Of a stretch of 43,093 bases of DNA, positions 935 through 31,888 are shown in pieces; position 1 is the stretch's first letter, and every line of letters begins with the position of its first letter. The notes under the pieces were generated by a model. It was not told the origin of the DNA and searched no databases. It saw nothing but the letters and a program-made list of their open reading frames with translations. Source of the DNA: Asterionella formosa (lineage: Eukaryota); contig NKIB01014467.1 in assembly GCA_002256025.1 (NCBI GenBank), forward strand, positions 1-43,093. The letters are read 5' to 3'. A program made the position numbers and the translations under genes.

Positions 935-1148
935 GGCCGAACGATTGATCTTGCCGCCACGCATAAATACGCATCCGCCCGCCAGTACTCGGTCCTTCTT
1001 TCGTGGAAGCCCGGGTTCCTTGCAAGGGCTGGAACAATAACACTGGTACAACTCTAATTGTACAAGCAACTCAGCGAACCAAAATTTCATCAGAATCTGT
1101 GAGCGGATCATCAATCAGATCGACCAATCGTTTAGTGGCATATCAGGA

Positions 1149-4100
1149 ATGGCCATGAGTGACGACGCGGAGGAACGAAAGCGCAAGCGCCTCGAGGCTT
1201 GGAGGAAACGACAGCAGGGCAGTACTCCAGTTGTCAAAGTCACTCTATCCTTGGGAACAACAGCCAAAAAGGCAAAACCAAAGTCACGTGTTTCTGTCTG
1301 TTCCAATCCATTCGGAGAAGGCGACGAAGATGAAGAGCTCCCGAACCGAAAATCCATGGGATTTCATTTGGACGATGACAAGGAGGACGGAGGCGACGAT
1401 AGCTGGGAGCAACAAGTGCCGGTAAAGAAGCGCCGGCGATGGGACAGCCAGCCTGAAATCAGCAATATTGGTGACGCACTTGACAAGTTCATGGAAAAAC
1501 TTGAAGCAGACGACACAGTGACTACGCAAGAAACAAGTTTGAGCATTGATATCAGCGGATCGATGATGCGACCAATCACTTCAAAGATTCGCACGCCGCT
1601 GAGTGGAGGTGTCATTACCCCAGAGCAATTACAACAGTTGAGTAGCGGTGCCGCCTACAAAACTTCAAAAGATCCGGATGCCCTCTATTCAGCTAGTGAT
1701 TGGGAAAGCGATGCTCAAGGGAATTCAAGTGAACCCGAAACGGACGATGACGAAGAACAGCAACGACGAAAACTCATTGAAGCTCTCAAGTCTGCCCCGG
1801 GACCAACTGATGAAGGGGAAGATGTTGAGGTCTCAAATCGACCAGCTCAACTGGCGGCGGAAGTCAAGACGGAGAAACAGCGACGAGAAGAACGGTTTAG
1901 AGAACTTGAACGAGAAGCCGAAGCTGCCAAACGTTCAGCTGCATCAGAGTCAGACTTTGGGAGGCTATACAACGATGGTGAAGGAGGCGTTATGGAAGAA
2001 GCCGAGCGCAACCTAGATGCCGCTATGGGAGCACCAGATGCTTTGGAGGTCTTGGCAGAACTTAACAAGAAGAAGGAACTGAAGGCAGTGGATCACAGCA
2101 AGGTGGACTACATTCCCTTCAACAAGAATTTGTATATTGTTCCAAGGTCACTTGCTGCGTTAACACCAGATGAGGTCGCAGATCGCCGTGCAAAGCTCAA
2201 GGTCAAAGTACGCGGACAAGGAGCCCCAGCTCCAGTCTCAAGTTTTGAAGAATGTGGGTTATCAGAACGTCTCATTGGAATTTTAGAGAAACAAGACATC
2301 AAAATGCCATTTCCAGTGCAGGCGCAGTGTATCCCTTGCATTATGGCTGGCCGTGACGTGATTGGTATTGCCAAGACTGGTTCGGGAAAGACACTTGCAT
2401 ATCTGTTACCATTGCTTCGGCACATTTCCGACCAGCCTCCGCTAGGGCCACAAGAATCTGGCCCTATTGGTTTAATATTGGCACCTGCTCGAGAACTTGC
2501 GTCTCAAATTCATTCAGTGTGCAAATTTTTTTCCAAGCACCTGAATTTAAAGTGAGTTATTTTGGTTCTGCCAATTTTTGAGAAGTACCACAATTTCTCT
2601 AACCATGCTTTATTACTAACAAGGCACAAAATGGCCATATCACGTGGTTGCTAACACGGGCGACAGAATGATGTTGTCGACTATTGCTTGAACTTTTTTG
2701 TTGTTATTTGATTCTTTTCTCATTCATTTTTCCTTGTTTCCTTCTTGCAGGTCAACGGCTGTATATGGTGGAGCTGCAGTGGCGGAACAAATTGGAGAGC
2801 TAAAACGAGGAGTTCACATTGCAGTTGCTACTCCTGGCCGTCTCATTGACATTCTTACCATGCAATCAGGAAAGCTTTTATCACTTCAGCGAGTTTCTTT
2901 CATTGTTTTAGATGAAGCCGACCGTATGTTCGACATGGGATTTGCTCCTCAAATTTCAGCTATTATCTCGGCTGTCAGACCAGATAGGCAGACAGTGTTG
3001 TTTTCAGCTACATTCCCCAAAACGGTGGAACAACTGGCAAGAAAGTCACTCCTATTCCCCATCGAAGTTTTAGTCGGCGGTCGGTCAGTCGCATCTGATA
3101 ATGTCACGCAGTTCGGCGAGGTCGTGGAGGAGGAGGATAAATTCCTTCGGCTGCTGCAATTGTTGGGTGAACACGTCGACGAGGGCAAGAAAGTGATCGT
3201 CTTTGTGGATACTCAAGTCAAGGCTGACAATGTTTTCGAGCAGTTGCTTCGATGTGGATATGTCTCGCTTTCGCTTCACGGTGGAAAAGAACAGGAAGAT
3301 CGCGATTCCACTATTTCTGACTTCAAAAGAAAGGATGGTCCCTTAGTACTCGTAGCCACTGGAGTGGCTGGACGCGGTTTAGATGTGCCTTCGTGTGGTT
3401 GCGTCATCAATTTTTCGCCACCGAATCACCTCGAAGCCTACGTACATCAGGTGGGTCGCACAGGTCGAGCGGCAGCTAAGGGATTTGCGTTCACCTTTGT
3501 CAATTCAACTGACGAAGCCAAGTATGCCCCAATCATTGTACGAGCACTGAGCGAAGCTGGACAATCCGAGAATATTCAGGCCGCCCTGAAGGAGCTCTCC
3601 ACTGACTTCAAAGAGAAGGTCAATCGCGGTGAAGCTAAATATGCAGGTTCAGGGTTCAAGGGCAAGGGATATTCATATGATTCTAATGAGCTAAGCGACG
3701 CGCAAAAACTAGCACGAGCTGAGAGGCGGCAAGCATTAATCGAAGCTGGGCTTTTGGATGCTGACGACGACGACCCGTGTATCGAAGCCGACAAGGAAAA
3801 ACCAAATGCCGAAGCGGACAAGCCTTCAACTGCAGAAAGCAGAGAAAAAGAAGCTAATATTGCCACTGCCATGAATGCTGCCGAGATGCAAAAGTTGACA
3901 CCTGAGCTGATGTTATTGCCGGGTATGAGAGAAGCAATCCTTCGTAAGGCAGGAATTTTGAAGGATGATGACGATGAGTTGTTGGATCCAGGAAGCAAGC
4001 CAGTGCAAATGGGTCCGAGTCATTACTTACAAGAAGTGGAGATCAATGATTATCCTCGTGAAGCTCGCTGGAAGGTAACTCAGAAGGAGACTACCAGCCG

Positions 4101-4341
4101 ACTACAATTTGAATTTCAGACTGCCGTGACACTCAAGGGTAGCTTCTTTGGTCCAGGCCGCACAGTTGGCGATGGTGAGCGTAAGTTGTATCTTCATTTG
4201 GAAGCCAAAACAGAGCAGATTTTGAAGAATTGTGTCCTCGAAATACGAAGGCTCCTGAACGAAGAAACACTCCGGGTGAGCGCTAGACAAGCAGGTGGTG
4301 GGGTAGGTGTGTCGTCCCACAAGTATAGTGTTTTAAGTTAG
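1149..4341 (+). CDS. PRP5: DEAD-box RNA helicase Prp5/DDX46 (U2 snRNP / branch-point recognition); 2 exons: 1149-2551 and 2751-4341
   Basis: Q motif (PFPVQAQCIP), AKTGSGKT, PARELA, TPGR, DEAD, SAT, GRGLD and HQVGRTGR. N-terminal RLEAW, DALDKFM, and C-terminal EINDYPREARWKVT are typical of Prp5/DDX46. Intron 2552-2750 (GTGAGT...TTGCAG) joins the two ORFs in frame (HLNLK|STAVYGG). Confidence 0.93.
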
Positions 4342-9036: not shown

Positions 9037-9628
9037 TGCATACAACTTGAGTAGCCAAGGGAACATCAAGTTGTTAAAAATCTGTGATAAAATAGTAACC
9101 ATTTGAGTAATCTTATTTCCATAAGCAACCAAATACATTATGTGCAAGTGGACACAAAAAAGACATCGCCTCATCCAGATGAGATGAGATAATTGATTTC
9201 CATGGTTGTCAATTACATTCATAGAACAGAATCCCGTTATGATAGCTATAATAACTAATACATGTTTTGGAAATAGCACAGTTTCGTGGTCATGTCAAGA
9301 GTTCGATCCTGAGGAATTTTTCACGGGCATTGCTGGCAGTACCAGGTACCATGTACCGTATTCTACCGGTACGTTGAAGTCTACCGGTATTTATGTATTA
9401 TATTTGTATGTACCCCTATTCATAATTTTATATTCCAGGTAAACCGTAGGCAGTTTCATCCATTTCGACACAGCCGAGTTCCCGTTCCAACTGAATTGGA
9501 TTTGTTATCGTCAGTGCGGCAGGATGATGGCTGATATTTTCCAAAGGAGAGTACCAGGTACTGTATATCGGTAAAGGTATATTTTCCTTGGACTTGTCGA
9601 GGTAATACATTCCCATTTGCCAACAACC

Positions 9629-12307
9629 ATGACCATCAGCAGCAGCGGAGACGAAGCCCAAAGTCACGATTGGTCAGCGTATTACGACGACAGCGGACAG
9701 CTTTATTATTACAATGCTGTTACGGAGGAATCAAGCTGGACTGCACCGGCAGAGGGCTTCCACCCGGCACCTCCACCGGAAGGCACAGATCCTGTTGTCG
9801 ATTATACATCGTCACAATCACAACAAGCAGTTGTAGTAGATGCTCAGGATGAAACGCAAGAAGGAGGCTCGACACCGACTCCGATGAGTCCGGTTGGTGG
9901 TGGTTCGGAACCGGAATCTGACGACACGGTATCGTCAGACGAGGATTCGTCTCAAGGAGGGGCAGACGACGCAGCCTCTAGTAGTAATGCTGGACAAGGC
10001 GACCATGATGCTGCAGTTGATGAACTACCTGTCGCTGCCACAGTTACATATTCCTCCGGTTGGGTGGCTTATCATGACGATGAAGGCAGAGAATACTATT
10101 ATAATGCAGAAACTGGGGCTACACAATGGGAAAAGCCTGACGATGAAGTACTCGACCAAGCACATACTGCGGAAAAAGACAGTGACGAAGCGATAGAGTA
10201 TGAGCTGACTCGAGTAGAAACTACTCCTCCACAATCACCGTTCATTGAGGAAGAACCTGAACGCGTACCAACTCCAGAGCCGGAGATTGATCCGAAGGTC
10301 AAGCGCTTGCAGGATGCAGAAGCAGCACTCAATTCGCCAGACAGTATCCTCGAATTGGGCTGTATCGATAACGTCAATATTCTACTCCAAGAGTTGGGAG
10401 GGTCAGAAGGAGGTCAGAAGGCCATGCAATCGTTGGTGAATAACTTTCAAGGCCAAACTGCGATCTGCGGATTGCTCTGTCAATGGCTGACAGAAATGAA
10501 GGTTCCGGACGAATCAGAGGATGCACTTGAGGAGGCTGCTGACGATATTCGAGAGAGTGTGCAGGAAGTCATCAACAAAATTGCAAAGGAAAGATTCAAT
10601 AAAGCGGTAGGGGACAGTATTTTCAGGTTGAAAAAGGCAGAAGCTGTCTTTCTGGATGAAATGATGGAATCGGAGCGATGGCGAAAGTTGCTGATTGACT
10701 TGTCGGCGTCTAACAAAGACAGCACACTATTAAAGTTCTGTTTGAAATCCATCTCCAATCGAGGGCACCACCGAGAAATTATTAAGCGAATTAACCCGTC
10801 CGATCATTTCGCGGTATTCAATGCCATGTTAGCGTCGGAATTTGCCGTAGTAGGGAAAATTGCTTTTGGCTCAACAAGTGATCTCGATACAGCCCTGGGG
10901 ATGAGCGAATTGGTGGAAGACTTGAGGCGAACGTGCACCTCTACCGCTTATACCTATATTTATGCTATTGAAGTCCTTAGGTACCTGATAGAGGAGGCTA
11001 GTCATTTATCTGATCAAGGACAAATGCGAGAAGCTATTCGCAAATGGGAACGCATTCAAGAAGAACTCGAAAACGCAATGATGGACCCATCCGTATCTTC
11101 AACTACTGCAGGATCATCCAGCTTGTTTAGAAAGAGGAGACTAGATATTGCATTGACAATCAGTGAGCTTCAGCAGCAGCAACGTAGACGACTTGATCCA
11201 ACGGTTTCAAATGTTGACCGTCATGACAACGAGCGCCACCATAATTCTTTGGAGACCGCGGTACTAGGACTCTTGAGGAAGAGTGCGATGGGCACTCAGT
11301 TGGATGACAATAATTTGGATCAGCTGCTACCAAAGAATGGTAGTGATGGGGGTGAGGTTGGAAAATTATTGATTTCACATCCCTTAGCCATCAAGGCTCT
11401 ATTGGGACACCTGTTTAAGCCTGGATCGACAAGAGTGCTTTCGTTGTTGACAAGAGCGAAGTGTGCACACCTTATAGCCCTTGCTGTTATGGCTGCCGAG
11501 AAGGTCTCAAATGAATATTCGGGGAAAGGAAGCCTAGTAGGAATTACTGACAAGAAGGCCCATGAGGAGGAAATTAAGGGCATGCTATTGACGGGAAGTC
11601 AAATGTGTGAGCTCGTTGAAAACATGGTTTCCTTTACTGTGTCGTCAAAAATTGAGGAGAATAATGCAAGCGCGGGCATGAAATTATGTGCCTTGGCTTT
11701 AAAAAGTGCTCCAGTAGCACAAGGCGTTATAAGTTGGTCCCTCGAAGTCGTCCGCGGGTCTGATTTTGTAACTTCTGCGTCATACCCAACTCTTTCCCCT
11801 TGTATTCTCGGTTTGGTTCGGATTATCGCGTCAAAACATCCATTTACGAGACGCACAGCTATGGATGTTGCACTTACTTTCTTGGGCCATACCAACTCTG
11901 AGATTTCTTCGCAAAAAATGAACAGCCTGAAGGAACAATCCTTACGCCTATTGATAATTTTACTCTGCAAGGGAGAAGCAACGTCGGTTTTTGGCAGCAT
12001 TGCGGCCTTATTGAACGCGCAGGGGACTTCTGTTATTGATAGCTCCCTTCTTCGGTATTTTGTCAGCGGGCTTCTCGACGTTGTAATGCCACCTTTTTCG
12101 CTGGTCATGATCCGGTCAATGGGTGCCATGTTATCAACGAAACCATGCATTGAAGCCGTTCGATCAACCTTCTTCGGCGATGTGAACCAGGCTAGACTAA
12201 ATAGTATTGTTGATAGATTCAGGGAATCGGTTCAAAATGACGAGGCTCTGAAGGCCAACGCAAACGATAAGAAGCTTGTATCTCTTCTCGTCGCATCGTA
12301 CTGCTAA
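9629..12307 (+). CDS. Negative elongation factor C/D (TH1-like) homolog with two N-terminal WW domains
   Basis: First ATG at 9629 (the ORF track starts at a TTG). WW1 is DWSAYYDDSGQLYYYNAVTEESSWTAP and WW2 is GWVAYHDDEGREYYYNAETGATQWEKP. The body has TH1/NELF-C/D-like blocks in order: DSILE, GLLCQWL, RFNKAVGDSIF, FLDEMMESERWRKLLIDLS, LLKFCLKSISNRGH, TYIYA, IDSSLLRYFV..LLDVVMPPFS. Confidence 0.8.
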   Translation: MTISSSGDEAQSHDWSAYYDDSGQLYYYNAVTEESSWTAPAEGFHPAPPPEGTDPVVDYTSSQSQQAVVVDAQDETQEGGSTPTPMSPVGGGSEPESDDTVSSDEDSSQGGADDAASSSNAGQGDHDAAVDELPVAATVTYSSGWVAYHDDEGREYYYNAETGATQWEKPDDEVLDQAHTAEKDSDEAIEYELTRVETTPPQSPFIEEEPERVPTPEPEIDPKVKRLQDAEAALNSPDSILELGCIDNVNILLQELGGSEGGQKAMQSLVNNFQGQTAICGLLCQWLTEMKVPDESEDALEEAADDIRESVQEVINKIAKERFNKAVGDSIFRLKKAEAVFLDEMMESERWRKLLIDLSASNKDSTLLKFCLKSISNRGHHREIIKRINPSDHFAVFNAMLASEFAVVGKIAFGSTSDLDTALGMSELVEDLRRTCTSTAYTYIYAIEVLRYLIEEASHLSDQGQMREAIRKWERIQEELENAMMDPSVSSTTAGSSSLFRKRRLDIALTISELQQQQRRRLDPTVSNVDRHDNERHHNSLETAVLGLLRKSAMGTQLDDNNLDQLLPKNGSDGGEVGKLLISHPLAIKALLGHLFKPGSTRVLSLLTRAKCAHLIALAVMAAEKVSNEYSGKGSLVGITDKKAHEEEIKGMLLTGSQMCELVENMVSFTVSSKIEENNASAGMKLCALALKSAPVAQGVISWSLEVVRGSDFVTSASYPTLSPCILGLVRIIASKHPFTRRTAMDVALTFLGHTNSEISSQKMNSLKEQSLRLLIILLCKGEATSVFGSIAALLNAQGTSVIDSSLLRYFVSGLLDVVMPPFSLVMIRSMGAMLSTKPCIEAVRSTFFGDVNQARLNSIVDRFRESVQNDEALKANANDKKLVSLLVASYC

Positions 12308-12410
12308 GCTATGTGAGCGTGGTGATAGGGACCCCAACGAACAACGGAGTTGAAGCCACACGTAGTGAAGGTTTAATGGTTTTTAATCATAAAATTTCGC
12401 AGCCAATCTA

Positions 12411-15400
12411 TTACTCGTCGTGACCTTCCTTTCCAGCGGCTTTGACGAGATCCGCAAACATTCCACCTCTGTCCAAAAGCACTTGTGGTGTATCAAACTC
12501 CGCGGCCTGGCCATCGTCCATCACTAAAATGAAGTCGGAATCCATGATTGTATTGATTCTATGTGCAACAGTTATGGTGGTTGCGTTGGCAAACTCACTT
12601 CGCATCACAGCTTGGATGCGTGCATCTGTATCTGCGTCGACGGCCGCTGTGGCTTCGTCCATGATCACAATGGTGGCCCCACATAAAAGTGCACGAGCAA
12701 TTACAAGCAATTGGCGTTGTCCAACTGAAAAGTTGCTGCCCCCATCATGGACCTCGTCCTCAAGATTCCGGATTTGGGCATTGGCCATACTCGAGAGAGA
12801 CATGCTCGACGATGATGGTTGCAACGTCGTGTACAAGCCAACGCGTGTGAGCACTTGGTAGAGCCTCGTGTCATCGAATTCTGAAAAGGGGTCCAAATTA
12901 GTCCTAACCGAGCCCGAAAACAAGACAGGATCCTGTGGGATTACTGCAATCTTTGAGCGAAGCTTTGTCAAGCCCAGAATTCTATGATCCACTCCATCAA
13001 TGATGATTTTTCCGTCGTCAAGCTCAACAATCCGAAGAAGGGCCACCATCAATGTTGATTTTCCTGTAATTTGGTTTTGGCGATACTATTAGCCAGAAGC
13101 ATTCAACAAAATGATGATACATTCACAGAATGACATGTGTACGAACTTACCAGCGCCGGTTCGTCCAACCACGCCGACTTTGCTTCCTGCGGGAATATTT
13201 ATGTTGAGACCCTTAAGTATCAATGGTAGCCCCGGCCTGTACCTCAACTTTGACCCAACAAATTTGATTTCGCCACCTGTCGGCCAAGTAGATTCAACCA
13301 GGTCATCCGACGGGGTATGCCTAGGAGCCTCACTCTTGATTTGACAATACTGTTCGATGCGTTCAACGGCAACCATGGATGCTTCGAGGTCACTTCCCAT
13401 TCTTACAATCCAATTCAACGACTGTGTCACTGAAAGGGCATATGAAATCGACAGGCCAGCGAGAGCAGCAAATCGCTCGTTCCCCCCTTGTTTCTTGTGT
13501 TGCAAAACGGAGCACAAACATGCAAAAGTGATGATAAGAGTACCCACAAGTTCTAATCGTACGGCCAGCCAACATTGTGCAGTCGCTGTAAGGAAATAAG
13601 CATGTTGCTGACGGTTAAGCATAGCATTCAAACGATCTGAGAGAGTGAGTTGTGCTGAGTAAGCTCTGATCGTTGATACTCCATCGAGCGTCTCTCCAAG
13701 AAGAGCGTAAATCGGTGACCGCCAAACCGAGTCAAGACGCTTCAGCTCCCTGTAGGTAATGGTAAAGTAAGCCTGTTGCATTAAGTAATAAACGATAATA
13801 GGGATCAAGCACGCGGTGAAGACCGGCGTTACACCAGATATCACAGCAATAGTGCAAATCACAGAAAACAAAGTTGCAAGATAGCTTCGAAGCGAAGACG
13901 CAATATTTTCGTCAACTGTATACATATCTGTTTGTGGGGTAGAGACAAGCAGAGAAGATTGAGAGAAAATGATCAAAATGGCAACCAACTAGAACGATTG
14001 AGTTGCACTCACCTTTGCTGAATCGATTAACAATACGACCAATAGGCGTCGTGTCGAAGAAGGACATAGGAGCTTTCAGAATTACAGATAGCAGGCGATT
14101 GAAGATTTGGCGTGATGCTCTCAACCCACATGCCATTACCAAAATAAGTCTGAAAAGAGTCGAGATGATGGATGCAAGATTGATTAGAGCATAAATCATG
14201 AGGAACTTCGCTTGGCTCTCACTGCCAGCGTGTTCTGACCAGTATGTCAACCACCACTTCGATACGACATTAATAAATTCCACAAACGCATATGATGCAA
14301 TAATCGCAAAAGGAGCCCAAATACCTCCTGCTGCCCTGCCCCACGCTATGTAGATTTTCAAATCAACATGGCCCGATTCTCGTTCCAGTATTTCGTCAGT
14401 CATGAGGACTCCAGACGGTTTTGGTGTGTCGTTCGCGACGGGCTTTTCTTCAATTACTACACTTGATGCAGTATCCGAAAGATCAGTCTCATCGTCTGCG
14501 GGCAACATTACCTCTATTGACGTATCATCGGAAAGAGTTAGGTCTTGAATGGATTCAACATTCAAGCCTTCTGTAGTAGTTGGTGAAACACCAGTTTCAG
14601 CCATTACGGCAAGAAATCTAGAAAAAAGTGTGTCATTCTTACTGAGCTCAGCGTATGATCCCTGTTCAACCACTCGACCCTCGCGAATCACCATGATACG
14701 GTTAACGAGTGGATGTCTCAAGTATTGAAGCGCATTTGTAACGAGAATAACTGTCTTTTTTCTGTGAGTCTCTCCATCCTGCATTTCCCTCTTGGCAAGA
14801 AGGAGCTCGTCAATTATGCATTTTTGGAACAGGTGTTTCCCGACGTGCGCATCAACTGCCGCAAGGGGATCGTCAAGAAGAGCAATATCTGCAGAATGGT
14901 ACACCGCACGCGCAAGAGCCACACGGGCTTTTTGTCCACCACTCAGGGTGATGCCTTTCTCGCCGATTTCTGTCTGGTCACCGGCTGCAAGTAACTCGAG
15001 GTCATGGAGAAGTGCGCATGAACGCAAGGCACGCTGGTACTTCTCCTCATCGACAGGCTCATCACTGTGCCCAAAGAGGATATTTGCTTTCACCGTGTCA
15101 TTCATTATAAATGGGGTCTGTGCAAAGTACGAAAGGCATCCATTGACGGAAGTGCTCCCAGAAAGCTCTCTTATTTCTCCCAAAATAGCATTAATAAAGG
15201 ACGATTTGCCGCAACCGACCCCACCTATGACTGCAACGAGCTCGCCTTCCTTGCAATCAAAGTTAATACGCTTCAAGCACATGAGGCTTGAAGATTGTAC
15301 TTCTTCTTCGCTCATTTTCACATCATTGAATGAGCTGCCTTTTTTCACCAGTTCCTTGATACAATGTTCGGCATCTTGTAATTGCGACCTGAGGAGTGTT

Positions 15401-16966
15401 ATCTCCCATTGCTTGTCAGCTAAGGCTTTTGTTTTGGGATCAATATCGACACCATACAGTTTCGGTTTCTTGCTTTCGTACGCATAGGAGGCATTTATGA
15501 TGCGAATGCCTTTTCCGTCAAGATCACCTTTTTGAATAGGAGAATGTTCGTCACAGAGCAAAAATGATCGAATGCGCTCCATTGATACACCAGCTTCGAC
15601 AATGTTGTTTATCACTTGGGGCAGCATGAATAGTGGGAAACGAAGGATATCAAACAACGCAAGCGATGTAAGGGCAGATGCGACTTCCAGCTGGTGCCCC
15701 GACCAAATGTATGCGGCAAAGGTGGCCAAGGCAACAGCAAGTGGTGTGGCACTCCACAACATGATGCTCAACGAGTTAAAAATAATATAGCGCCAAAGTT
15801 GTTTCAACTCAATTTCACGCAGGGCAAGAACACGATTCTCAAATGATTCTTCCCAAGCCTGCAGCTTAATGATCTTCATGCTTCCCAAGACTTCGCTATT
15901 GACTTCGACTCGCTTGTCCTTGGCCGCCATTAGTTCTCGCTGCATTTGTCCCATCCATTTTGCAACAGATTTTGTAATTGGCATCATGATAATAATGACT
16001 ATGAAATGCGTTATTTGGTGAGATTTTTAGGCGACAAAAAATGGATGCAAATACCAAACATTTTCTTACCTACTACGCCACCGAGACAACTGGCACCAAG
16101 TTGTTGAAAGAGAAAGTATAGGGCAAGCGCGATTTGAACAAATGAGTACCAAACCGCATGGAGATCTGATGACAAAGGTAAGAAAGTAAGCCTAAAATAT
16201 GCCACAAAACTCTAAGTCGAACCATCAAAAACTCACATGTCGTCAAATCTTGCATACGCTGGGCATCAATGGACATGAGATTGGTAATTTCGCCGAGCGT
16301 CCTTATCTGTCGTTCTGCCGAGTTCAAAACAAGGGCCTTCCTGTATACAGCAACTACTACAGCGCTTCTAATTCTCAACCCAGTCAAGTAGCAATTGAAA
16401 AAGTAGTGTCGAAGGCAAAAGCTCATCAAGAGCTGTGACACCGTGACAGCAGCAGTCAGCCACAGCCCTTCAGTGAGTGGTGCGTTGGCGTCCCGCAAAA
16501 AGTGAATGAGCCCATTCAATACTTGTGGCCCAACAAAGATAGCGCAGTCGTGTATTAGCTTAAGAAGTCCAGCTCGCATGAAATCCGCCCCAAATGCATA
16601 GAACAGAGCCCGAACAATGGATGGCGGTGCTATTACTGACGCCGCGCTTGGGTCCTTGGCCTTTTCTGCTTCCCAGTACGTATTGAATTTTTCCAGCACA
16701 TCCTCAGTGCTGCAGTCCTTGGGAAATTTTATACAATTAAGATCCTCGGGGTCTAACTTCTGCTTCACGTTCCCAATCTCCAGAACGGGCGAAAACCAAT
16801 CGAAAATGAGCTTGGACCAGATGGAAGCATTGGCGGGTCCACTGGGAATCTCCGCAGGCGCATCGGTCTTGCTCGATATGAGAGGTGCCGTCTCGGTCAC
16901 GCATCCAGGAGGGTCCGTGTTGCACTCGCCATTCTCGGGCTCAATACTGCCGTAGGTGGAGGCCAT
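12411..16966 (-). CDS. ABC transporter subfamily C (MRP-like, short form without TMD0); 5 exons: 16966-16237, 16165-16070, 15998-14013, 13927-13151, 13063-12411
   Basis: NBD1 GGVGCGKSS, EIGEKGITLSGGQKAR, LLDDPLAAVD. TMD2 APMSFFDTTPIGRIVNRFSKD, RELKRLDS. NBD2 GRTGAGKST, IPQDPVLF, NFSVGQRQL, MDEATA, AHR. GT-AG introns 16166-16236, 15999-16069, 13928-14012 and 13064-13150 each restore the frame. Confidence 0.95.
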
Positions 16967-17503
16967 GGCTCCCTGTTGAAATCGGAATAGAAACGAATAC
17001 TGCACTGCTATGAATTGTTTAGATTTCCAACAAGAAATTAGCTACCGGTAAAGCACTTTGATCTCAACCATGTGGACTATGAAAATATGATAGCTAAAAC
17101 AATACATGTCGTCTGCTACATAAGGTAGTACAGGGACTCTACATAGCACTCCGAGCAATACACCTGGCACTGGTACCAAGGAATTTTGGGTAGACCACCT
17201 TTTTACTTAGGAAAATATTTAGCTAAATAAATCGATGGCCAGACCTTCCAACAGGTCCCTGACATACCTGCAGCAGAGGTCGTAACAATATATACCGTAT
17301 CGGTATGTACAGATGAGTGTAAGCAAAATGCATCAGTAAATCCCACGACAATTTACTCCATTTAATTAATCTACAGATGAGGATTGCATTTATCATCATT
17401 GCGCTCACTATTATCTACGTGTCATCCTCATTGCTCGGTGTTGACATCAATTAGCTAATTGGTCACCCTGTTCATATTACGACTTGACTGATCCACCATC
17501 ACC

Positions 17504-18651: not shown

Positions 18652-19168
18652 NNNNNNNNNNNNNNNNNNNNNNNNNNNNNNNNNNNNNNNNNNNNNNNNN
18701 NNNNNNNNNNNNNNNNNNNNNNNNNNNNNNNNNNNNNNNNNNNNNNNNNNNNNNNNNNNNNNNNNNNNNNNNNNNNNNNNNNNNNNNNNNNNNNNNNNNN
18801 NNNNNNNNNNNNNNNNNNNNNNNNNNNNNNNNNNNNNNNNNNNNNNNNNNNNNNNNNNNNNNNNNNNNNNNNNNNNNNNNNNNNNNNNNNNNNNNNNNNN
18901 NNNNNNNNNNNNNNNNNNNNNNNNNNNNNNNNNNNNNNNNNNNNNNNNNNNNNNNNNNNNNNNNNNNNNNNNNNNNNNNNNNNNNNNNNNNNNNNNNNNN
19001 NNNNNNNNNNNNNNNNNNNNNNNNNNNNNNNNNNNNNNNNNNNNNNNNNNNNNNNNNNNNNNNNNNNNNNNNNNNNNNNNNNNNNNNNNNNNNNNNNNNG
19101 ACTTTAAATGAGTTCCACCAGACATGACTACTACAAGTCTCCTTGCCAAGTATACGACTTTCTCGGTA

Positions 19169-21637: not shown

Positions 21638-22178
21638 ATGGAACACACGTACGACAAGCCTTTTGACAAACTACCGGTAAGTGAGACGTGGTTTAAATAT
21701 TTCGGAACAAGGACACTTGTTTTATTTTCGAACGATTGACTTTGCTCAAAAGCAAGGGGGTCGGACGCTTTACCGGTAAATGCACTCCCTTGTGCATGCA
21801 TTCCAGCATACAATAGACTACCGTATATACCGGTAGACTACCGGTACCGGTATGTTGGTTTATCAGTCGTGAAGTTTTGATCCCAATCGTTCATTAGTGT
21901 TCTTAATCTGGTGTACCAGGTACCTGGCAACAACCAGAACGTAGTGTACATACCGGTACGTATTATTGATTGAAACGTGATAATGCAGTGTCAAAGCCGA
22001 GCTACAGTTTACATACACAGTACCGGTAAACACTGTTATACTCTTCCAACATTTTATCACAGATTAAGTATAAGTACATGTACAAGAAAGTGAATCATAG
22101 TTTATCCGTCCTCATAAACGGTTCGCATCAAGCGCAACGACAAATAAATCCTATCCTCATTCATTCACATCAACATTC

Positions 22179-22967
22179 ATGACTGCCGCCGTATTTTCCA
22201 TGAATCCTTCATCTCGGATATTCAGCAATGACTGGAATCAACATTACAGAAGCGAGAAGCCGTTGCCTCCTATTAACGATGACGACTCCGTATTTGACGA
22301 CGCCGAAGAAGACAATAGTCCAGTGACAATTTCCAGCTCAGATGCTGCACTACGCTTCTCATCTACCGAAAGTACCTCGGCAGATTTGCCAGAAAGAAAC
22401 GGATCTGCTGGCTTGAATTCCACAAGCTCAAGTGAGTGGCTCCTTCATCAGCTCCACCCTCCACTAAGGCAGCAGCAATGGAGCTTTCAAGATGTGTCGA
22501 ACTCTTATGGACTGCTTTCTCGAGCGGGAACTGCTGAAGAATTACTTAGATCTCGTTTGCATTTTGCGTCTCCTGTTGCCGCGGTCACCACTATTGCTGA
22601 ATCTATGGCACCACGTCAATTACCAAGTCCACAACCACAGGTCGTGGTGGAATCAGACATTAGGGATTCGGATGTTTTGTGTGGACGTGGTGGAAAGTCC
22701 AATCATCACCCGGGAAATAAGCGGTATCGTCAGGTCATTGGAGATCTCCGTCGAAAGTATCGTGGTACATCAGCAAAGGTTGCCAAGACAAATTTGAGTC
22801 GAGCCATTGTTGACTATGTAAATGCGTATGGGGGACGATTCTTAAAAATGGACAAGGCAGGATGGGTGGTCCTCACAAAAGGTGAGGCTCGTAAGAAGAC
22901 AGCCCAGGCATTAAGAGAAACCAAAGAGCTCAAATGGACAGAACAGAAAACAAACGTTAACATGTAG
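22179..22967 (+). CDS. DUF6824-domain protein (diatom-expanded family) with a low-complexity N-terminus
   Basis: DVLCGRGGKSNHHPGNKRYR...KY...K..LSRAIVDYV...GGRFLK...W.......ARKKTAQALRE is the DUF6824 pattern. Confidence 0.85.
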   Translation: MTAAVFSMNPSSRIFSNDWNQHYRSEKPLPPINDDDSVFDDAEEDNSPVTISSSDAALRFSSTESTSADLPERNGSAGLNSTSSSEWLLHQLHPPLRQQQWSFQDVSNSYGLLSRAGTAEELLRSRLHFASPVAAVTTIAESMAPRQLPSPQPQVVVESDIRDSDVLCGRGGKSNHHPGNKRYRQVIGDLRRKYRGTSAKVAKTNLSRAIVDYVNAYGGRFLKMDKAGWVVLTKGEARKKTAQALRETKELKWTEQKTNVNM

Positions 22968-23387: not shown

Positions 23388-26291
23388 CCTGTCTTTTTCA
23401 TGTAGTTCCTAGGGTTCCAGGGGGTGAAGCTGACGAAAAGACAGGACCTGTTGTACTGTACAGACAAATAAAACAGGTATTAATTGTTTACATATAAAAT
23501 ATGGGCACAATTGTGATTATTGGATAGCTTTGATGTCGTACTAGTACTATAAGATTTAATTTCAATTTGTCTTGCCTTTTGTTCATCATGAATACTAACA
23601 CAAGTAAACTAGATTTTTCTTCAGAAGCTAAAATTCTTTGTGACAGCTCAGAGCTAAAATAAGGTACTAAGAACTAAGATGATTGATCTCTGTACTTTGC
23701 AATTCTTATCAATTAAGCATCTCTAACATAGGTATGTCTCTCCTATTTGCAGGAATAATTGCTTTTCTCAGCATCCTACAATCAGACTTGGAAATGGGTT
23801 TTGCTGTGATTGGAGTGAAGGTGGTGGAATAATGGTTGTTACTGGAAAGAATAAGAGAATGATGCCATCACAAGCAGGCAGGGAAGTGCTTTTTCATCAA
23901 CAACCTGTTGTTCAGCCATTTTTTCAACTACTAATAGTACTGCTAGCTAGTAGTCCTACAACATATTTTCCTGAACTAAAATTTTTGTTCCATGGAATTC
24001 CTCATGACTGTGCATTCATTGCAGTACTGCTACTACTGTCTGGTGGTAACAGTAGTCGCTTATCCTCAACAAATGTTATCGGTCAGCAGCCTGAATTCCT
24101 AATCATGCATCAGTATAACCCTACTAGCTTGTGGAACAATCAAGTCCAGTAACAAGGTCGTAGTAAGTGACCCAAACTTCATTTACTTATTTATTAAGGT
24201 GCCCGAGGTACTGTTTGGGCCCCAACAGCAAACCAGTCACAATGAAGAGCTTGTTGACTGCAGGAATATAGGACCAGTTGTCAATACTGACTTCTGTTAC
24301 AAAATTCTTTAAGGTATGCACGGGGGAATGGCTTACTAGCTAGTTAGCATACCTTCCGATCGAGGTGGTGAGTATATCACTTCCTACCTTGTACTGGTAT
24401 CAGGTATAAATATGATATTGTTACGAAAATATGATTTACACAGCATGTACACTGCTTCATTACTCCCGACAATTGACTTGCATATAAATATTGATACCAA
24501 TTGGTTATGACTGCCACCAATTGAAGGGTCTAAATAATTAAATACAACTGATGTATAAAATATTGATACAAAAAGATTCAGAAACAGTACTGGTACACGA
24601 AGTTGTGGAAAACAATGATGGATGTCTTATGCATTGAATATTTTCGAATTATGTATATGCGAATATGATCATGGGTAATAGCAGATGTGCCATATTTAGA
24701 GTGCCTTTGAATTTTAAAAATGTAGTTAAAATACATGGCAAATATATTTGAAATCGTTCTGACATGTTAACAATCCATGCCTGCTTCGTGAAAAAGAAAT
24801 ATCGTAGCGTATGACAAGCAAAAGCTTACGCATCAACGCAACACATTGCGGCTTCGACAAATTGCGCCTTCGAAGAATGGAGTATGTTTAAGCTAAAGAA
24901 TCTATCAATGTGGTACGTGGATGAGAATTGTTGGGATGACAGGCAGCAACAAAGAGTAAACTAAACGATTTATTTTATCTCATTTGATTCAATAGCTCAT
25001 TTCGTTTGTCGGGGAGCACCAATGTAAAACAATAGAAAATTGGTAAGTGCTCTTGTCGTTGTGGACCTATTCACTACTGTTGGCAAATAACTGACGCACG
25101 CGTTTTCCTTCTTTCAACGTAAAGCCAAGCAAAATGAGTTGCTTGGTCAGTTTTATTCGAAAACATTGGATACCTGATATTAACTTATTCAAGAATTGAC
25201 TGCTAATTTACTTCTACAGACATGTGAATTGATTTGTGGTAAGCGAAGCAAGAGGATACAATGGAATTGCGTTGTGTTGTGTCAGTGTAACATGACTAGC
25301 TAACAAAGCATTCCTTCCCATTGTTACTGTAAATGCATAGGACAATAAACCCTTTCAAACAACAGAAGAGTGCATGAGTTCAGAGTGACACTAACAGCAG
25401 GGAAAGAGACGAGACATTAAGCACTGCCTGACACAAGATTCAAAATAGAGGAAGGGCGAGACAGGAATATACATTGAGACCAGTGGAGAGAGAAACATTG
25501 GGNNNNNNNNNNNNNNNNNNNNNNNNNNNNNNNNNNNNNNNNNNNNNNNNNNNNNNNNNNNNNNNNNNNNNNNNNNNNNNNNNNNNNNNNNNNNNNNNNN
25601 NNNNNNNNNNNNNNNNNNNNNNNNNNNNNNNNNNNNNNNNNNNNNNNNNNNNNNNNNNNNNNNNNNNNNNNNNNNNNNNNNNNNNNNNNNNNNNNNNNNN
25701 NNNNNNNNNNNNNNNNNNNNNNNNNNNNNNNNNNNNNNNNNNNNNNNNNNNNNNNNNNNNNNNNNNNNNNNNNNNNNNNNNNNNNNNNNNNNNNNNNNNN
25801 NNNNNNNNNNNNNNNNNNNNNNNNNNNNNNNNNNNNNNNNNNNNNNNNNNNNNNNNNNNNNNNNNNNNNNNNNNNNNNNNNNNNNNNNNNNNNNNNNNNN
25901 NNNNNNNNNNNNNNNNNNNNNNNNNNNNNNNNNNNNNNNNNNNNNNNNNNNNNNNNNNNNNNACCATAATTATACTAGGATACATTGATCATAGTTTTGA
26001 TCCAAAAACTATCATATGTGTGAAAATCCTGTGCCACTTAGCATACGATACATTTGATCCTTTATACATGATACTTTTTATTTGCAGACGGTACTCATTC
26101 CCAAAACCGACAAATATTCCCTGACTTTGGCAGCCGTTAAGAAATCAAAGTATGAAACTTCTAATGGCTTGCACCCACAGGCCGTATAAAGACGACTGGA
26201 CAAAATTCGATAAATTCAGATAATTAGGGACAAAACAGGTTCTGACGAATTGATATTTTGGGTAGTTAAAGTATTTAGGGACTATGTTAGT

Positions 26292-29023: not shown

Positions 29024-31888
29024 CATGATGGAAGGTCTTCACTCAATTCCATAGCCACATCGAGTTTCTTGGAAGTGGGTGTAGTCGCTCGGCTGGAGGA
29101 ACAATTCTGACAACTGACCAACTCAATCATTCACTCGCGTATGTATGCAAAGGCATTGGATTTTCGAGACGTTTAGAAGGCAGTCAATTTGCATTGCTCA
29201 CATAACGCCTTGGAATGGTGAAACACCAGTTTGATGGAAAAGAACTGCATGGATAAGTGCTTGCTTTCCTCTTGTTATTCAAGGTTGCTTGCATACAGGA
29301 TACTTAGCCTACAAATAGGTTCTTAGGTTGTTACATGTCAAATTCTCCATTTTTTCTCAATGTTTCTTGCTTACACATACCGAAATTCATTATTAGAGTA
29401 CCAGCAGTGTTCTATTCCAGTCTAGTTTTAAATAGTTTGAAGTTCTTGTTGGAATGCTATCAAGTATTGTAGGCGCTCTCTAAGTTGCTTGTAGTTGATT
29501 GTTCAATCAAGGGATAAGGAGGAAAAGGGAAAAAGTGTGCCAGCTGCCGAAAATATGGAGGGCAAGATCAGCAGCCGGCAAGAAAGCCAGCAATCAGCAT
29601 AGGGAGAGAACCTTGTAGCTACAGCATCACCTGAGCAGAGGAAGCCTCCCTGTATGATTTCTACTCTCAATATACTGATTGATGCAGCAGGACTGCAGAA
29701 TGAGGTTATGCGTAGTAGCAGCAAATTGGAGAAAATAGCAACTCCAGGATATTGTGTTGGCTTATCTATTTCACTGAACCTTGATCAGTTCGCCCACGTC
29801 ATAAAATTCGAAGTGTACATTGACATCAGAGTGATGCTCAGCGCCAATAGCAACAGTTAAATCTACAAAACTGGAGTAAAGACGACTTGGAGCACACTTG
29901 GCTATATATTTAGCATATACTTCAACCATGCAAATTTTTTAACTATTAAAATTTTACCAAACTTCTATTTGTTTTATTTACCATGCTGGAACCCATTTGG
30001 CATTTAGTATGTGGCGCGCCTTTCTGGGATAAGTCGAGATATCCGGTTTCTGAGAATGTTCAAAATCGACAAATTTCTGGAGAATTGCAAAAACTTTTAA
30101 TGTATTCCTTTTACGCATGTTTTCCATGTATGCCTCTGAAATTAGATCTTGGCAGCAAGTTTAGGTGCTCATTTGTTAGCTTTCTCTGCTGTTCTACAAT
30201 GGGAACTCAATGCTACTGCAGACTTACTATCACGCCATGATACAACTCCCTAAGTTTATAAACCCACTCTTTGCTTTATTGGAGTTGGCCTCAGCTCTCT
30301 CTACAGCTTGCAATACGGAAATAGTCGAACTTCTCTCTAAGATCAGACAATTTGATCACATTGATTTCACTGCATTAGATTCTGCTTTGATTACTAGAGT
30401 TCCCATGAAGGTTCTTACCGACCCATCCCATCTAGATTCTGCCATCTCACCAGAAAGGTGCATCACACAACTGCCACTCTACACCCGCCCAACTCCTGGC
30501 CTCCAGCCATACTAGTCTAGATTGTCACACCCTGAAAGCCGCTACAGTACTAGCTAAATACTTACTACTGGACACAGCATCACAAATCCATGATGCACAC
30601 NNNNNNNNNNNNNNNNNNNNNNNNNNNNNNNNNNNNNNNNNNNNNNNNNNNNNNNNNNNNNNNNNNNNNNNNNNNNNNNNNNNNNNNNNNNNNNNNNNNN
30701 NNNNNNNNNNNNNNNNNNNNNNNNNNNNNNNNNNNNNNNNNNNNNNNNNNNNNNNNNNNNNNNNNNNNNNNNNNNNNNNNNNNNNNNNNNNNNNNNNNNN
30801 NNNNNNNNNNNNNNNNNNNNNNNNNNNNNNNNNNNNNNNNNNNNNNNNNNNNNNNNNNNNNNNNNNNNNNNNNNNNNNNNNNNNNNNNNNNNNNNNNNNN
30901 NNNNNNNNNNNNNNNNNNNNNNNNNNNNNNNNNNNNNNNNNNNNNNNNNNNNNNNNNNNNNNNNNNNNNNNNNNNNNNNNNNNNNNNNNNNNNNNNNNNN
31001 NNNNNNNNNNNNNNNNNNNNNNNNNNNNNNNNNNNNNNNNNNNNNNNNNNNNNNNNNNNNNNNNNNNNNNNNNNNNNNNNNNNNNNNNNNNNNNNNNNNN
31101 NNNNNNNNNNNNNNNNNNNNNNNNNNNNNNNNNNNNNNNNNNNNNNNNNNNNNNNNNNNNNNNNNNNNNNNNNNNNNNNNNNNNNNNNNNNNNNNNNNNN
31201 NNNNNNNNNNNNNNNNNNNNNNNNNNNNNNNNNNNNNNNNNNNNNNNNNNNNNNNNNNNNNNNNNNNNNNNNNNNNNNNNNNNNNNNNNNNNNNNNNNNN
31301 NNNNNNNNNNNNNNNNNNNNNNNNNNNNNNNNNNNNNNNNNNNNNNNNNNNNNNNNNNNNNNNNNNNNNNNNNTGCAGAGGAATCCGAAAAATGGTGGTA
31401 TCGCTGTCTTCTTCCTAGACTCTCTCTGCTCTGCCTATGAAGTAGACCCAATGGGGCTGACTGGCAAGCTGGCTTGCAATGGCGAGCATTGCATCATACT
31501 GCCCCGGTAGTGTAGCCATCTGCAACATAGACATTGAGGCTCATCATGTATCTGTATACATCACCCGGATAGTAGGTGTTTGAGTTGAAGTTTATGTGTT
31601 TTTCTCCTCCCGCCAATTCCATCCTCATTTATAAAATTTAAAACTCTAAAAAGCATTATCTCACATGACAACTTATCACACTCACCCATTTTTCACGATG
31701 ATGTAAACCAATAGAACAACCATGCACAGATTAGTGACTTTACTAGTCAATCAAGAATTCCAAATATCTCAAAAATCCAAAGCATTCTTATCTAGTAAGT
31801 GATTTGTCATGACGAATGCAGTATTCTCACAATAGTGCACAGTTCAGGATTCAGAGGTTCTCGCATAGGCTGCACATGTCCACATTGT

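Follow-up and report, generated by a model that had tools for sequence, protein, structure and literature searches.

The closest known counterpart of the protein described here is human and Drosophila NELF-C/D (TH1L; Pfam TH1, PF04858), and structures of the human protein have been solved both in Pol II-DSIF-NELF (PDB 6GML, 7PKS, 8RBX, 8W8E, and 9J0N) and in NELF-AC (5L3X). NELF-B and NELF-C/D are reported to have a wide eukaryotic distribution and a probable ancestral origin, the HDAg-like domain to be confined to animals plus Capsaspora, and NELF-E to be restricted to metazoans; the same preprint describes a two-subunit "core NELF," consisting of NELF-B and NELF-C/D, for non-animal eukaryotes (Chivu et al., bioRxiv 10.1101/2023.02.19.529146). 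Core NELF such as that of Dictyostelium likewise has a non-animal ortholog of NELF-C/D and presumably lacks both the HDAg-like part of NELF-A and NELF-E. The view of NELF as a metazoan system, which the first-pass annotation of the present locus had adopted, is therefore outdated, and because NELF-B and NELF-C/D are widespread and probably ancestral (Chivu et al.), a non-metazoan NELF-C/D is unsurprising in itself. Neither WW domains nor stramenopiles are mentioned in the accessible main texts on core NELF (Chivu et al.; Chang et al. 2012, PMC3371697), and no stramenopile was sampled experimentally in the work that these texts describe. In the searchable literature we found no discussion of a WW-TH1 fusion and no relevant paper on NELF or COBRA1 in stramenopiles (diatoms, oomycetes, Phytophthora).

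The locus described here lies in a window of 43,093 nt, the whole stretch of DNA analysed, from the freshwater diatom Asterionella formosa (GCA_002256025.1, contig NKIB01014467.1). The coding sequence (9629..12307, plus strand) is a single intronless ORF of 892 aa plus stop, and its ATG at 9629 is the first ATG downstream of an in-frame TAA at 9572-9574. Judged by its sequence, the product is a WW-WW-TH1 protein and the diatom ortholog of NELF-C/D (Table 1).

Table 1. Features of the WW-WW-TH1 protein and their positions in the window
Feature	Residues (aa)	Coordinates	Strand	Sequence or property	Evidence
WW domain 1	15-40	9671..9748	+	WSAYYDDSGQLYYYNAVTEESSWTAP; net charge -4	Pfam WW, our WW HMM, PRPF40A/Prp40 alignment
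Acidic linker 1	41-144	9749..10060	+	Ser/Thr/Pro-rich, without basic residue	Composition
WW domain 2	145-170	10061..10138	+	WVAYHDDEGREYYYNAETGATQWEKP; net charge -4	Pfam, PRPF40A WW1/WBP4 alignments, our WW HMM
Acidic linker 2	171-218	10139..10282	+		Composition, diatom-tier consensus and conservation
TH1 / NELF-C/D body	219-846	10283..12166	+		Pfam TH1, human NELF-C/D match, diatom-only profile
Most conserved family block	331-390	10619..10798	+	...RWRKLLIDLS...ISNRGHHREI...	Column identity, alignments
Basic motif	499-521	11123..11191	+	FRKRRLDIALTISELQQQQRRRL	Within segment unaligned to human NELF-C/D

The TH1 identity of the body, which the first-pass annotation had left to a profile search, held up: Pfam TH1 matched significantly (E = 1.6e-39, 136.5 bits against a cut-off of 24), with aa 219-846 aligned to positions 29-560 of the 579-position profile. 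When solved structures were searched with phmmer, human NELF-C/D was recovered far beyond chance (E = 1.5e-14) in two blocks (aa 235-461 to human 45-249 and aa 689-829 to human 409-544), and the middle segment between them (aa 462-688, approximately 230 residues) received no alignment. A profile built from 70 diatom-tier proteins alone matched human NELF-C/D (E = 2.5e-40) over human residues 21-249 and 321-562, the two regions in which we consider the diatom and animal proteins homologous; it also matched chain B of 5L3X (E = 1.4e-19). Both the N-terminal part of human NELF-C/D and its C-terminal, NELF-A-binding part (183-590) were thus covered. For P0005, an ortholog with 68% identity, the atlas has a poor, low-confidence model (pLDDT 0.56); its nearest neighbor is the NELF-C/D cluster, but at a TM of only 0.32/0.46.

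Conservation within the body is uneven. The NELF-AC crystal spans NELF-C 183-590, and NELF-C K125 crosslinks to NELF-B (Vos 2016). The most conserved block of the family (Table 1) aligns with human residues of about 125-185 and falls in the part of NELF-C outside that crystal; its column identity is 0.80 in the diatom tier, and its sharing with non-diatoms is the highest observed (0.30-0.35). Shared with human and Drosophila NELF-C/D are the pattern RWR..L...L / IS..G...EI of this block and, apparently, the basic residues of one of the RNA-binding surface patches carried by human NELF-C (Vos 2016), patch 4 (R419 -> K692, R506 -> K781). Patches 2 (K371, K372, and K374; here S627, N628, and Y630) and 3 (K384 and K388; here E647 and G651) appear not to be kept; all three were mapped by hand in loop regions, where the alignment is unsure, and patch 1 lies within the unaligned region. 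The middle segment, with its basic KRR...RRR motif, has no counterpart aligned in human NELF-C/D. R501, K502, R503, and R504 are invariant or nearly so in the 70 diatom-tier rows, and many of the oomycete and animal rows have gaps across the motif region; the motif is possibly a nuclear localization signal. Diatoms form the most divergent TH1 tier, scoring 136 bits versus 299 for Phytophthora, with an identity of only about 22-24% to human/Drosophila-type NELF-C/D and only about 22% to the oomycete TH1.

The first-pass annotation had also held that WW domains and TH1 body occupy one uninterrupted ORF and that their fusion is no gene-model artefact, and both statements were confirmed. The ORF is stop-free and its TH1 near-full-length. 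Poly-A RNA libraries from two studies yielded contigs colinear with the ORF (X3 record 5, 9652-12500; X4 record 6, 9595-12500), and these pass from WW to TH1 without a joint or indel. In two further RNA runs (X1 and X7) the gene was covered only piecewise, and region 9300-9406 was uncovered in each of the four runs, an absence that carries no evidential weight; such contigs cannot reveal transcript ends or establish one single transcript. The same WW+TH1 architecture is seen in two relatives represented by complete MMETSP transcripts, P0017 and P0173, and in 67/67 close relatives that are 780 aa or longer, which have 1 to 8 WW copies each by our WW HMM. Were the fusion instead a neighboring WW gene and TH1 gene joined by chance read-through or misassembly, the 9 of 78 database relatives without WW and the annotated variants of Aphanomyces invadans, which occur both with and without WW, would be accounted for. 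However, the ORF, the RNA contigs, the MMETSP transcripts, and the relatives together refute this explanation, whose probability we consider negligible. In some cases, short "WW-less" forms can be the apparent result of introns that were missed: upstream of L001 and L002 lie 7-8 WW units, connected via a 92-nt candidate intron (GTAAGT...AG), and a single exon of L001 holds both the WW array and the TH1 start motif.

The diatom protein differs from human and Drosophila NELF-C/D in its acidic, low-complexity N-terminal arm of approximately 215 aa bearing two canonical WW domains. Pfam WW (PF00397) matched two stretches (E = 4.5e-20, 71.8 bits against a cut-off of 26.9; best stretch 143-170), each with the WW signature of two Trp spaced 20-22 residues apart and followed by x-x-Pro (W15...W37..P40 and W145...W167..P170). 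W37, P40, W145, N159, W167, and P170 are invariant in the 70 diatom-tier rows. Across 200 WW units of 26 aa from 70 proteins, conservation was 1.00 for W1, W23, and P26, 0.98 for N15, 0.87 for T18, and 0.92, 0.90, and 0.83 for Y12, Y13, and Y14, respectively; the function of these WW domains is under constraint. The arm is strongly acidic: Lys and Arg are absent from aa 1-140, and the summed net charge is about -45 over aa 1-230. Linker 1 (21 acidic and 0 basic residues in aa 42-140) is poorly conserved in the diatom tier (conservation 0.13-0.23, gaps 43-54%) and variable in length among relatives. The C-terminal end of linker 2 is a conserved E-P-E-I-D-P lead-in to TH1 (consensus ExEIDPAVxRLQxAExAL).

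Among solved WW domains, the nearest were those of PRPF40A (E = 4.9e-11), WBP4 (E = 9.8e-10), and Prp40 (E = 1.9e-9), all readers of proline motifs; TCERG1 was matched at E = 2e-6, and Ess1 (E = 7.5e-4), YAP1 (E = 4.4e-3), and Pin1 matched far more weakly than PRPF40A and WBP4. By these matches, the diatom WW domains are of the Prp40/FBP11/FBP21 type. Prp40/PRPF40A (FBP11) and WBP4 (FBP21) are spliceosomal tandem-WW proteins and have the triple-aromatic YYY-N strand in common with the diatom domains. Unlike in these proteins, the diatom WW domains precede a TH1 body and are accompanied by no Pfam zinc finger. Nor did Pfam detect, at E values up to 1, the FF domain expected of a Prp40/PRPF40 family member; the similarity to that family is confined to the WW part. 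TCERG1 (CA150), a Pol II elongation regulator with WW and FF domains, is likewise distinct: the WW_TCERG1 Pfam match is weak (15.6 bits against a cut-off of 70), the diatom protein is without FF, and the C-terminal bodies are unrelated.

Domains of the Prp40/TCERG1/SETD2 kind are found in transcription-coupled proteins, and the WW/FF regions of yeast Prp40 reportedly bind the phospho-CTD. The first-pass annotation had proposed recruitment through the CTD, the Spt5 CTR, or splicing factors. On such a mechanism, the WW domains might recognize phospho-Ser-Pro motifs of the Pol II CTD or Spt5 CTR and so bring a NELF-like pausing complex directly to phosphorylated polymerase; an array of as many as 8 WW units would match the repetitiveness of a ligand such as the CTD heptads, and in oomycetes the basic WW domains (net charge +2.5 and +2.2) are compatible with a phosphate-bearing ligand. 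In Pin1-type (group IV) WW domains, however, phosphate is contacted by a basic, Ser/Arg-rich loop 1. The diatom domains lack a loop of this kind: loop 1 reads DDSGQ in WW1 and DDEGR in WW2, with a consensus of D(0.95)-D/E-E-G-R over the 200 units. In addition, the diatom WW units have mean net charges of -4.4 and -4.0, the arm carries -0.21 charge per residue, and the matches to solved Pin1 and Ess1 are much weaker than those to PRPF40A and WBP4. Given the strong acidity of both WW domains and arm, and the D-D/E-E-G-R form of loop 1, a phospho-Ser-Pro ligand looks unlikely in diatoms, and we regard recruitment by this route as rather improbable. Since oomycete WW domains are basic (+2) and diatom ones acidic (-4), the ligand, which is wholly inferred, may differ between the two lineages. 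A built-in ligand, the Pro-rich tail (FHPAPPP) after WW1, was considered but dropped as a conserved feature: even a loose Pro pattern occurred in only 29/82 diatom-tier and 0/11 oomycete proteins.

The fusion extends well beyond this gene. Oomycete homologs, some already labelled "negative elongation factor, putative" or "WW domain-containing protein" (for example, Phytophthora infestans T30-4 P0222 and P. kernoviae P0185), come like the diatom protein from stramenopiles and share its WW-WW-TH1 order and the YYYN motif in WW. Their basic WW domains lie close together (aa 5-30 and 55-81), and the Phytophthora tandem can be aligned as a single unit with that of PRPF40A, whereas the acidic WW domains of the diatom protein are approximately 100 aa apart and vary from 1 to 8 copies in diatoms. 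A 177-nt tandem DNA period accompanies this variable copy number, and the two observations together fit a multivalent reader. Precomputed Pfam assignments listed WW+TH1 for 69/78 close matches, and WW was listed in 35/37 matches to a Phytophthora query. Among the tree rows, WW was present in 43/47 non-animal and 0/9 animal-type sequences: WW+TH1 occurs in oomycetes and several further protist clades, and the animal-type clade alone is without WW, as the first-pass annotation had said of metazoan NELF-C/D. Its main proposal, a WW-fused NELF-C/D in a non-metazoan, stands insofar as the protein is a homolog with two true WW domains, but a NELF-C/D outside animals is not in itself surprising, and the fusion is not specific to this gene; in diatoms and oomycetes, it is the standard architecture. 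Profile searching from 17 distant proteins yielded only 4 matches, and a protein-atlas search with P0174 returned solely animal clusters (scores of at most 0.86).

From this distribution, the WW+TH1 architecture appears to be inherited and not peculiar to 9629..12307. An exclusive diatom-plus-oomycete TH1 clade was rejected (AU test, p = 0.00036), so the gene tree does not demonstrate simple vertical inheritance; given the long diatom branches and interleaved clades, however, the AU result is uninformative about inheritance. A one-to-one orthology across the two lineages, WW1 with WW1 and WW2 with WW2, was likewise unsupported: both diatom domains are nearer to oomycete WW1 (scores of 76.5 and 77.2) than to oomycete WW2 (50.2 and 53.7).

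On balance, we lean modestly toward a role for the protein as a core-NELF subunit. The TH1 body would pair with NELF-B to form a two-subunit core NELF on early-elongating Pol II, and the WW arm would act as a flexible, often multivalent tether to a proline-rich partner. Such a partner would more probably offer neutral or basic-flanked PPLP/PR-type motifs than phospho-Ser-Pro; candidates are splicing or early RNA-processing factors and unphosphorylated CTD or Spt5 repeats. By tethering the complex to this partner, the arm would replace the anchoring that flexible NELF-A and NELF-E regions give in animals. The protein could alternatively be a TH1-family scaffold outside NELF-like pausing, that is, a stand-alone splicing or RNA-processing adaptor or a component of cytoplasmic signalling, with partners set by the WW arm. 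The WW module is most like that of spliceosomal Prp40/WBP4, the diatom TH1 is very divergent and appears not to have kept RNA patches 2 and 3 of human NELF-C, and COBRA1 (NELF-B; PF06209) was not among the 15 further ORFs scanned in the window, out of 54 open frames that reach 150 aa. Outside NELF, moreover, human TH1 has reported binding partners in A-Raf, PAK1, and c-Src (PMC3253115). Against such a scaffold, the protein retains both halves of NELF-C/D, conservation peaks in a block of the N-terminal part that is linked to NELF-B in human, and NELF-B and NELF-C/D are reported to be both widespread, forming one core (Chivu et al.). A scaffold role seems unlikely, and we retain the core-NELF reading.

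A broader evolutionary scenario is speculative, and we would give it little weight. WW-bearing NELF-C/D might be ancestral to core NELF across much of eukaryotes, its founding job being to link Pol II in early elongation with partners that bear Prp40-type proline motifs and belong to the early spliceosome or to RNA processing. Animals would then have shed the WW domains as NELF-A and NELF-E arose, focal pausing would be a later animal elaboration, and diatoms would have re-tuned the arm to acidic arrays of up to 8 WW.

The gain in knowledge is moderate: neither the TH1 family, nor its occurrence in non-animals, nor the WW fold is new, and public annotation already shows both domains. The WW-TH1 protein is nonetheless a real, conserved variant of the known NELF-C/D family. 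Promoter-proximal pausing has NELF as its defining factor, and core NELF must reach Pol II without NELF-A and NELF-E. The conserved, selectively maintained WW arm offers a concrete candidate handle for recruitment in diatoms, oomycetes, and other protists, as well as a marker for tracing how the NELF complex changed on the way to animals. Old in protists and missing in animals, the WW design may illustrate the anchoring of a simpler pausing complex.

The WW-TH1 protein of Asterionella formosa (892 aa) is encoded by one open reading frame (ORF), whose ATG is the next downstream of an in-frame TAA at positions 9572 to 9574. Pfam detected two WW stretches (PF00397, E = 4.5e-20, 71.8 bits against a cutoff of 26.9), with the signatures W15...W37..P40 in WW1 and W145...W167..P170 in WW2, and a TH1 body at aa 219 to 846 (PF04858, profile positions 29 to 560 of 579, E = 1.6e-39, 136.5 bits against a cutoff of 24). 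The first 140 residues contain no Lys or Arg, and the summed net charge of aa 1 to 230 is about −45. The first-pass annotation, which had placed two WW domains, an acidic arm, and a TH1 body in a single ORF, was therefore accurate throughout.

The stretch or part of it was present in 11 public sequencing runs, 10 of them recorded as RNA, and four runs (three studies) were aligned to the DNA. Two contigs, X3 (9652 to 12500; poly-A transcriptome) and X4 (9595 to 12500; lake metatranscriptome, a different study), were colinear with the DNA through WW1, WW2, TH1, and the stop codon, with no joints or indels. Both also extend into the convergent ABC transporter gene; such contigs are no proof of a single transcript, and DNA can occur in RNA libraries. 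WW and TH1 also occur together in complete MMETSP transcripts of two relatives (P0017 and P0173). A gene-model artefact as the source of the fusion is excluded, as had been argued from the uninterrupted ORF.

Features of the window
Feature	Position	Strand	Remarks
DEAD-box helicase, C-terminal KH domain	1041-4338	+	open frames 1041-2552 and 2692-4338
SET-domain protein, 909 aa	6307-9036	+	Pfam SET, E = 3.1e-25; upstream neighbor
WW-WW-TH1 protein	9629-12307	+	
Pro-rich tail	9749-9790	+	aa 41-54
Basic motif	11123-11191	+	aa 499-521
ABC transporter (ABC_membrane and ABC_tran)	12411-17041	-	convergent with the WW-TH1 gene
DUF6824 gene	22101-22964	+	E = 1.9e-25
DUF726 protein, 1056 aa	31892-35059	-	E = 1.3e-82
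Five N runs (assembly gaps, 382-878 bases)	18652-19099, 25503-25962, 30601-31373, 35364-35745, 40716-41593		

The SET protein carries two KRRGRPPKS AT-hook-like repeats and a Cys-rich region in addition to its SET domain, so a chromatin gene adjoins the NELF-C/D gene. Because the ABC transporter is divided among four or more open frames, its gene contains introns; the two helicase frames are presumably separated by an intron as well. The N runs account for the low-GC bins and for the blocks open in all six frames. Of the 54 open frames in the window that reach 150 aa or more, 15 besides the WW-TH1 gene were scanned, and none is COBRA1 (NELF-B).

The significant TH1 profile match is joined by direct similarity to human NELF-C/D, the top match of a phmmer search of all PDB chain sequences (8rbx_w, E = 1.5e-14), which aligned in two blocks (query 235 to 461 with chain 45 to 249 and query 689 to 829 with chain 409 to 544). 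A 117-member family profile matched NELF-C/D in a single stretch (E = 4.8e-124), a result that is not independent because its alignment includes animal-type sequences. As a clean test of homology, a profile built from 70 diatom-tier proteins (close relatives with 40% identity or more) matched human residues 21 to 249 and 321 to 562 with E = 2.5e-40. The best-conserved block of the family, aa 331 to 390 (diatom-tier column identity, 0.80), is also the one most shared with nondiatoms and aligns with human NELF-C at about residues 125 to 185. According to Vos et al. 2016 (PMC4940160), K125 of human NELF-C crosslinks to NELF-B, and the NELF-A(6-188)/NELF-C(183-590) crystal lacks the N-terminal part of NELF-C, the region to which the diatom block aligns. 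When the RNA-binding residues described there were mapped by hand on the phmmer and diatom-profile alignments, in loop regions where the mapping is unsure, basic patch 4 was retained (R419 as K692, R506 as K781), patches 2 and 3 were not, and patch 1 was unaligned. The atlas model of a 68%-identical ortholog, a poor model, was closest to the NELF-C/D cluster, with TM values of 0.32/0.46, below the level at which a fold is named. The basic motif FRKRRLDIALTISELQQQQRRRL, near-invariant across the 70 diatom-tier proteins, sits in a segment unaligned to human NELF-C/D and may serve as a nuclear localization signal or a nucleic acid contact.

The survey of WW-TH1 fusions proposed in the first-pass annotation found them in diatoms, oomycetes, and further protist clades. 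A word-indexed search returned 78 close relatives, all with E values of 1.8e-102 or better; those named are pennate diatoms (Fragilaria crotonensis, Seminavis robusta, Nitzschia inconspicua, Cylindrotheca closterium, and a Bacillariaceae MAG). Both Pfam families are listed for 69 of the 78, and a custom WW HMM detected WW domains in 70, including 67/67 of those of at least 780 aa, in copy numbers of 1 (12 proteins), 2 (38), 3 (1), 4 (7), 5 (4), 7 (5), and 8 (3), with 0 in the other 8. An exhaustive search with the TH1 body alone gave 425 representatives at E values up to 1e-3. In the next tier, at 26 to 35% identity, 29 proteins were scanned with Pfam: 13 had WW, among them that of Phytophthora kernoviae, and 16 had TH1 alone. 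The P. kernoviae protein in turn retrieved 37 proteins, 35 with WW listed, from the oomycete genera Phytophthora, Peronospora, Plasmopara, Bremia, Hyaloperonospora, Pythium, Albugo, Aphanomyces, Saprolegnia, and Achlya.

None of the eight close relatives that lack WW exceeds 725 aa. For one of these, P0067, the DNA surrounding its relatives was examined. At two loci from marine-type relatives (L001 and L002; 70% identical), the same strand carries seven to eight WW units farther upstream in a different frame (L001, nt 40 to 1248; L002, nt 1885 to 3297). A candidate 92-nt intron (GTAAGT...AG), missed by the database gene models, connects them with TH1; its position is a little way into TH1, whose start motif is encoded by the preceding exon. 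This arrangement indicates that the WW-less short forms are, at least partly, products of missed introns. Three loci of about 40% identity (L003 to L005) encode two WW units and TH1 within one ORF. In Aphanomyces invadans, a single contig is annotated with a "variant 1" without WW (715 aa) and a "variant 2" with two (662 aa) (P0186 and P0210), which may therefore be regulated isoforms with and without the WW arm.

A quick maximum-likelihood tree (LG+G4, 644 columns) was computed from 56 TH1 bodies (23 diatom-tier, 10 oomycete, and 23 others) chosen from the 117 alignment rows, the remainder being left out for speed. Nine high-scoring TH1-only proteins were split off by a branch with 99.9 support. 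One of them, P0207, matches human NELF-C/D end to end (1047.7 bits), and the group is therefore the animal-type clade; that all nine are TH1-only agrees with the earlier statement that animal NELF-C/D has no WW domain. On the other side of the branch, WW was present in 43 of 47 rows, and WW presence and absence require at least four changes on the tree. An exclusive clade of diatom and oomycete TH1 bodies was rejected (AU test, P = 0.00036); because of long diatom branches and interleaved clades, this result has no bearing on whether there was one ancient fusion. Taken together, these results establish WW-NELF-C/D as a genuine, conserved architecture kept by selection, one that is typical of diatoms and oomycetes, occurs in further protist clades, and is absent from the animal-type clade.

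Fold and groove positions were near-invariant across 200 26-residue WW units taken from 70 diatom-tier proteins (both Trp and Pro, 1.00; Y12, Y13, and Y14, 0.92, 0.90, and 0.83; N15, 0.98; T18, 0.87), with a loop 1 consensus of D-D/E-E-G-R. The linkers between the domains had column identities of 0.13 to 0.23 and were about half gaps. Judged by these patterns, the WW domains are under purifying selection, whereas the linkers are not. The Pro-rich tail directly following WW1 reads EGFHPAPPPEG, and GF(N/H)PPPP-like stretches occur in 29/82 diatom-tier proteins and 0/11 oomycetes.

Against solved WW domains, the N-terminal 192 aa alone matched PRPF40A (4.9e-11), WBP4 (9.8e-10), and yeast Prp40 (1.9e-9) best, followed by TCERG1 (2e-6), SETD2 (5.9e-5), NEDD4L (9e-5), Ess1 (7.5e-4), and YAP1 (4.4e-3). 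Pfam found no FF domain in the 892-aa protein, and membership in the Prp40 family was therefore rejected. The Phytophthora WW pair (aa 3 to 85) aligns with the PRPF40A tandem in one stretch. Diatom WW1 and WW2 scored means of 76.5 and 77.2 against oomycete WW1, 50.2 and 53.7 against oomycete WW2, and 85.5 against each other. The charge of the module is inverted between the lineages: in diatoms the WW domains have mean charges of −4.4 and −4.0 and the arm −0.215 per residue, whereas in oomycetes the means are +2.5 and +2.2 and the arm is neutral. Part of the eight-unit array of L002 is a 177-nt tandem DNA repeat (75% match). On this basis, the diatom WW domains seem to descend from a single WW that was duplicated within the lineage and turned acidic. 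The first option of the first-pass annotation, that the WW module reads the phosphorylated CTD of Pol II, fits an acidic diatom module poorly but is possible for the basic oomycete module; the fusion and the NELF-C/D identity both stand, and the interpretation as a whole is supported in part.

NELF has been reported outside animals in Dictyostelium (Chang et al. 2012, PMC3371697), and ciliates are said to be without it (PMC12716044). In the main text of Chivu et al. (bioRxiv 10.1101/2023.02.19.529146), NELF-B and -C/D are described as widespread among eukaryotes and as the structural core, with higher pausing indices where they are present than without NELF; the sampling given there includes no stramenopile, and "WW domain," "stramenopil," and "diatom" do not occur, although the supplementary ortholog table may list stramenopile orthologs. 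The WW-TH1 architecture is already visible in public annotation: five close relatives are labeled "TH1 protein/WW domain" by JGI, and several oomycete relatives "negative elongation factor, putative" or "WW domain-containing protein." The searchable literature yielded no discussion of the fusion or of stramenopile NELF.

The protein is thus an ortholog of NELF-C/D whose flexible arm bears conserved WW modules. FBP11/FBP21-type and Pin1-type WW domains have distinct ligand classes. From WW similarity and charge, the arm would tether the NELF core to PPLP- or Pro-Arg-type proline-rich partners or to unphosphorylated repeats. The TH1 body would pair with NELF-B on early-elongating Pol II, as suggested by the findings of Chivu et al., and the WW arm may take the role played in animals by the flexible regions of NELF-A and NELF-E.
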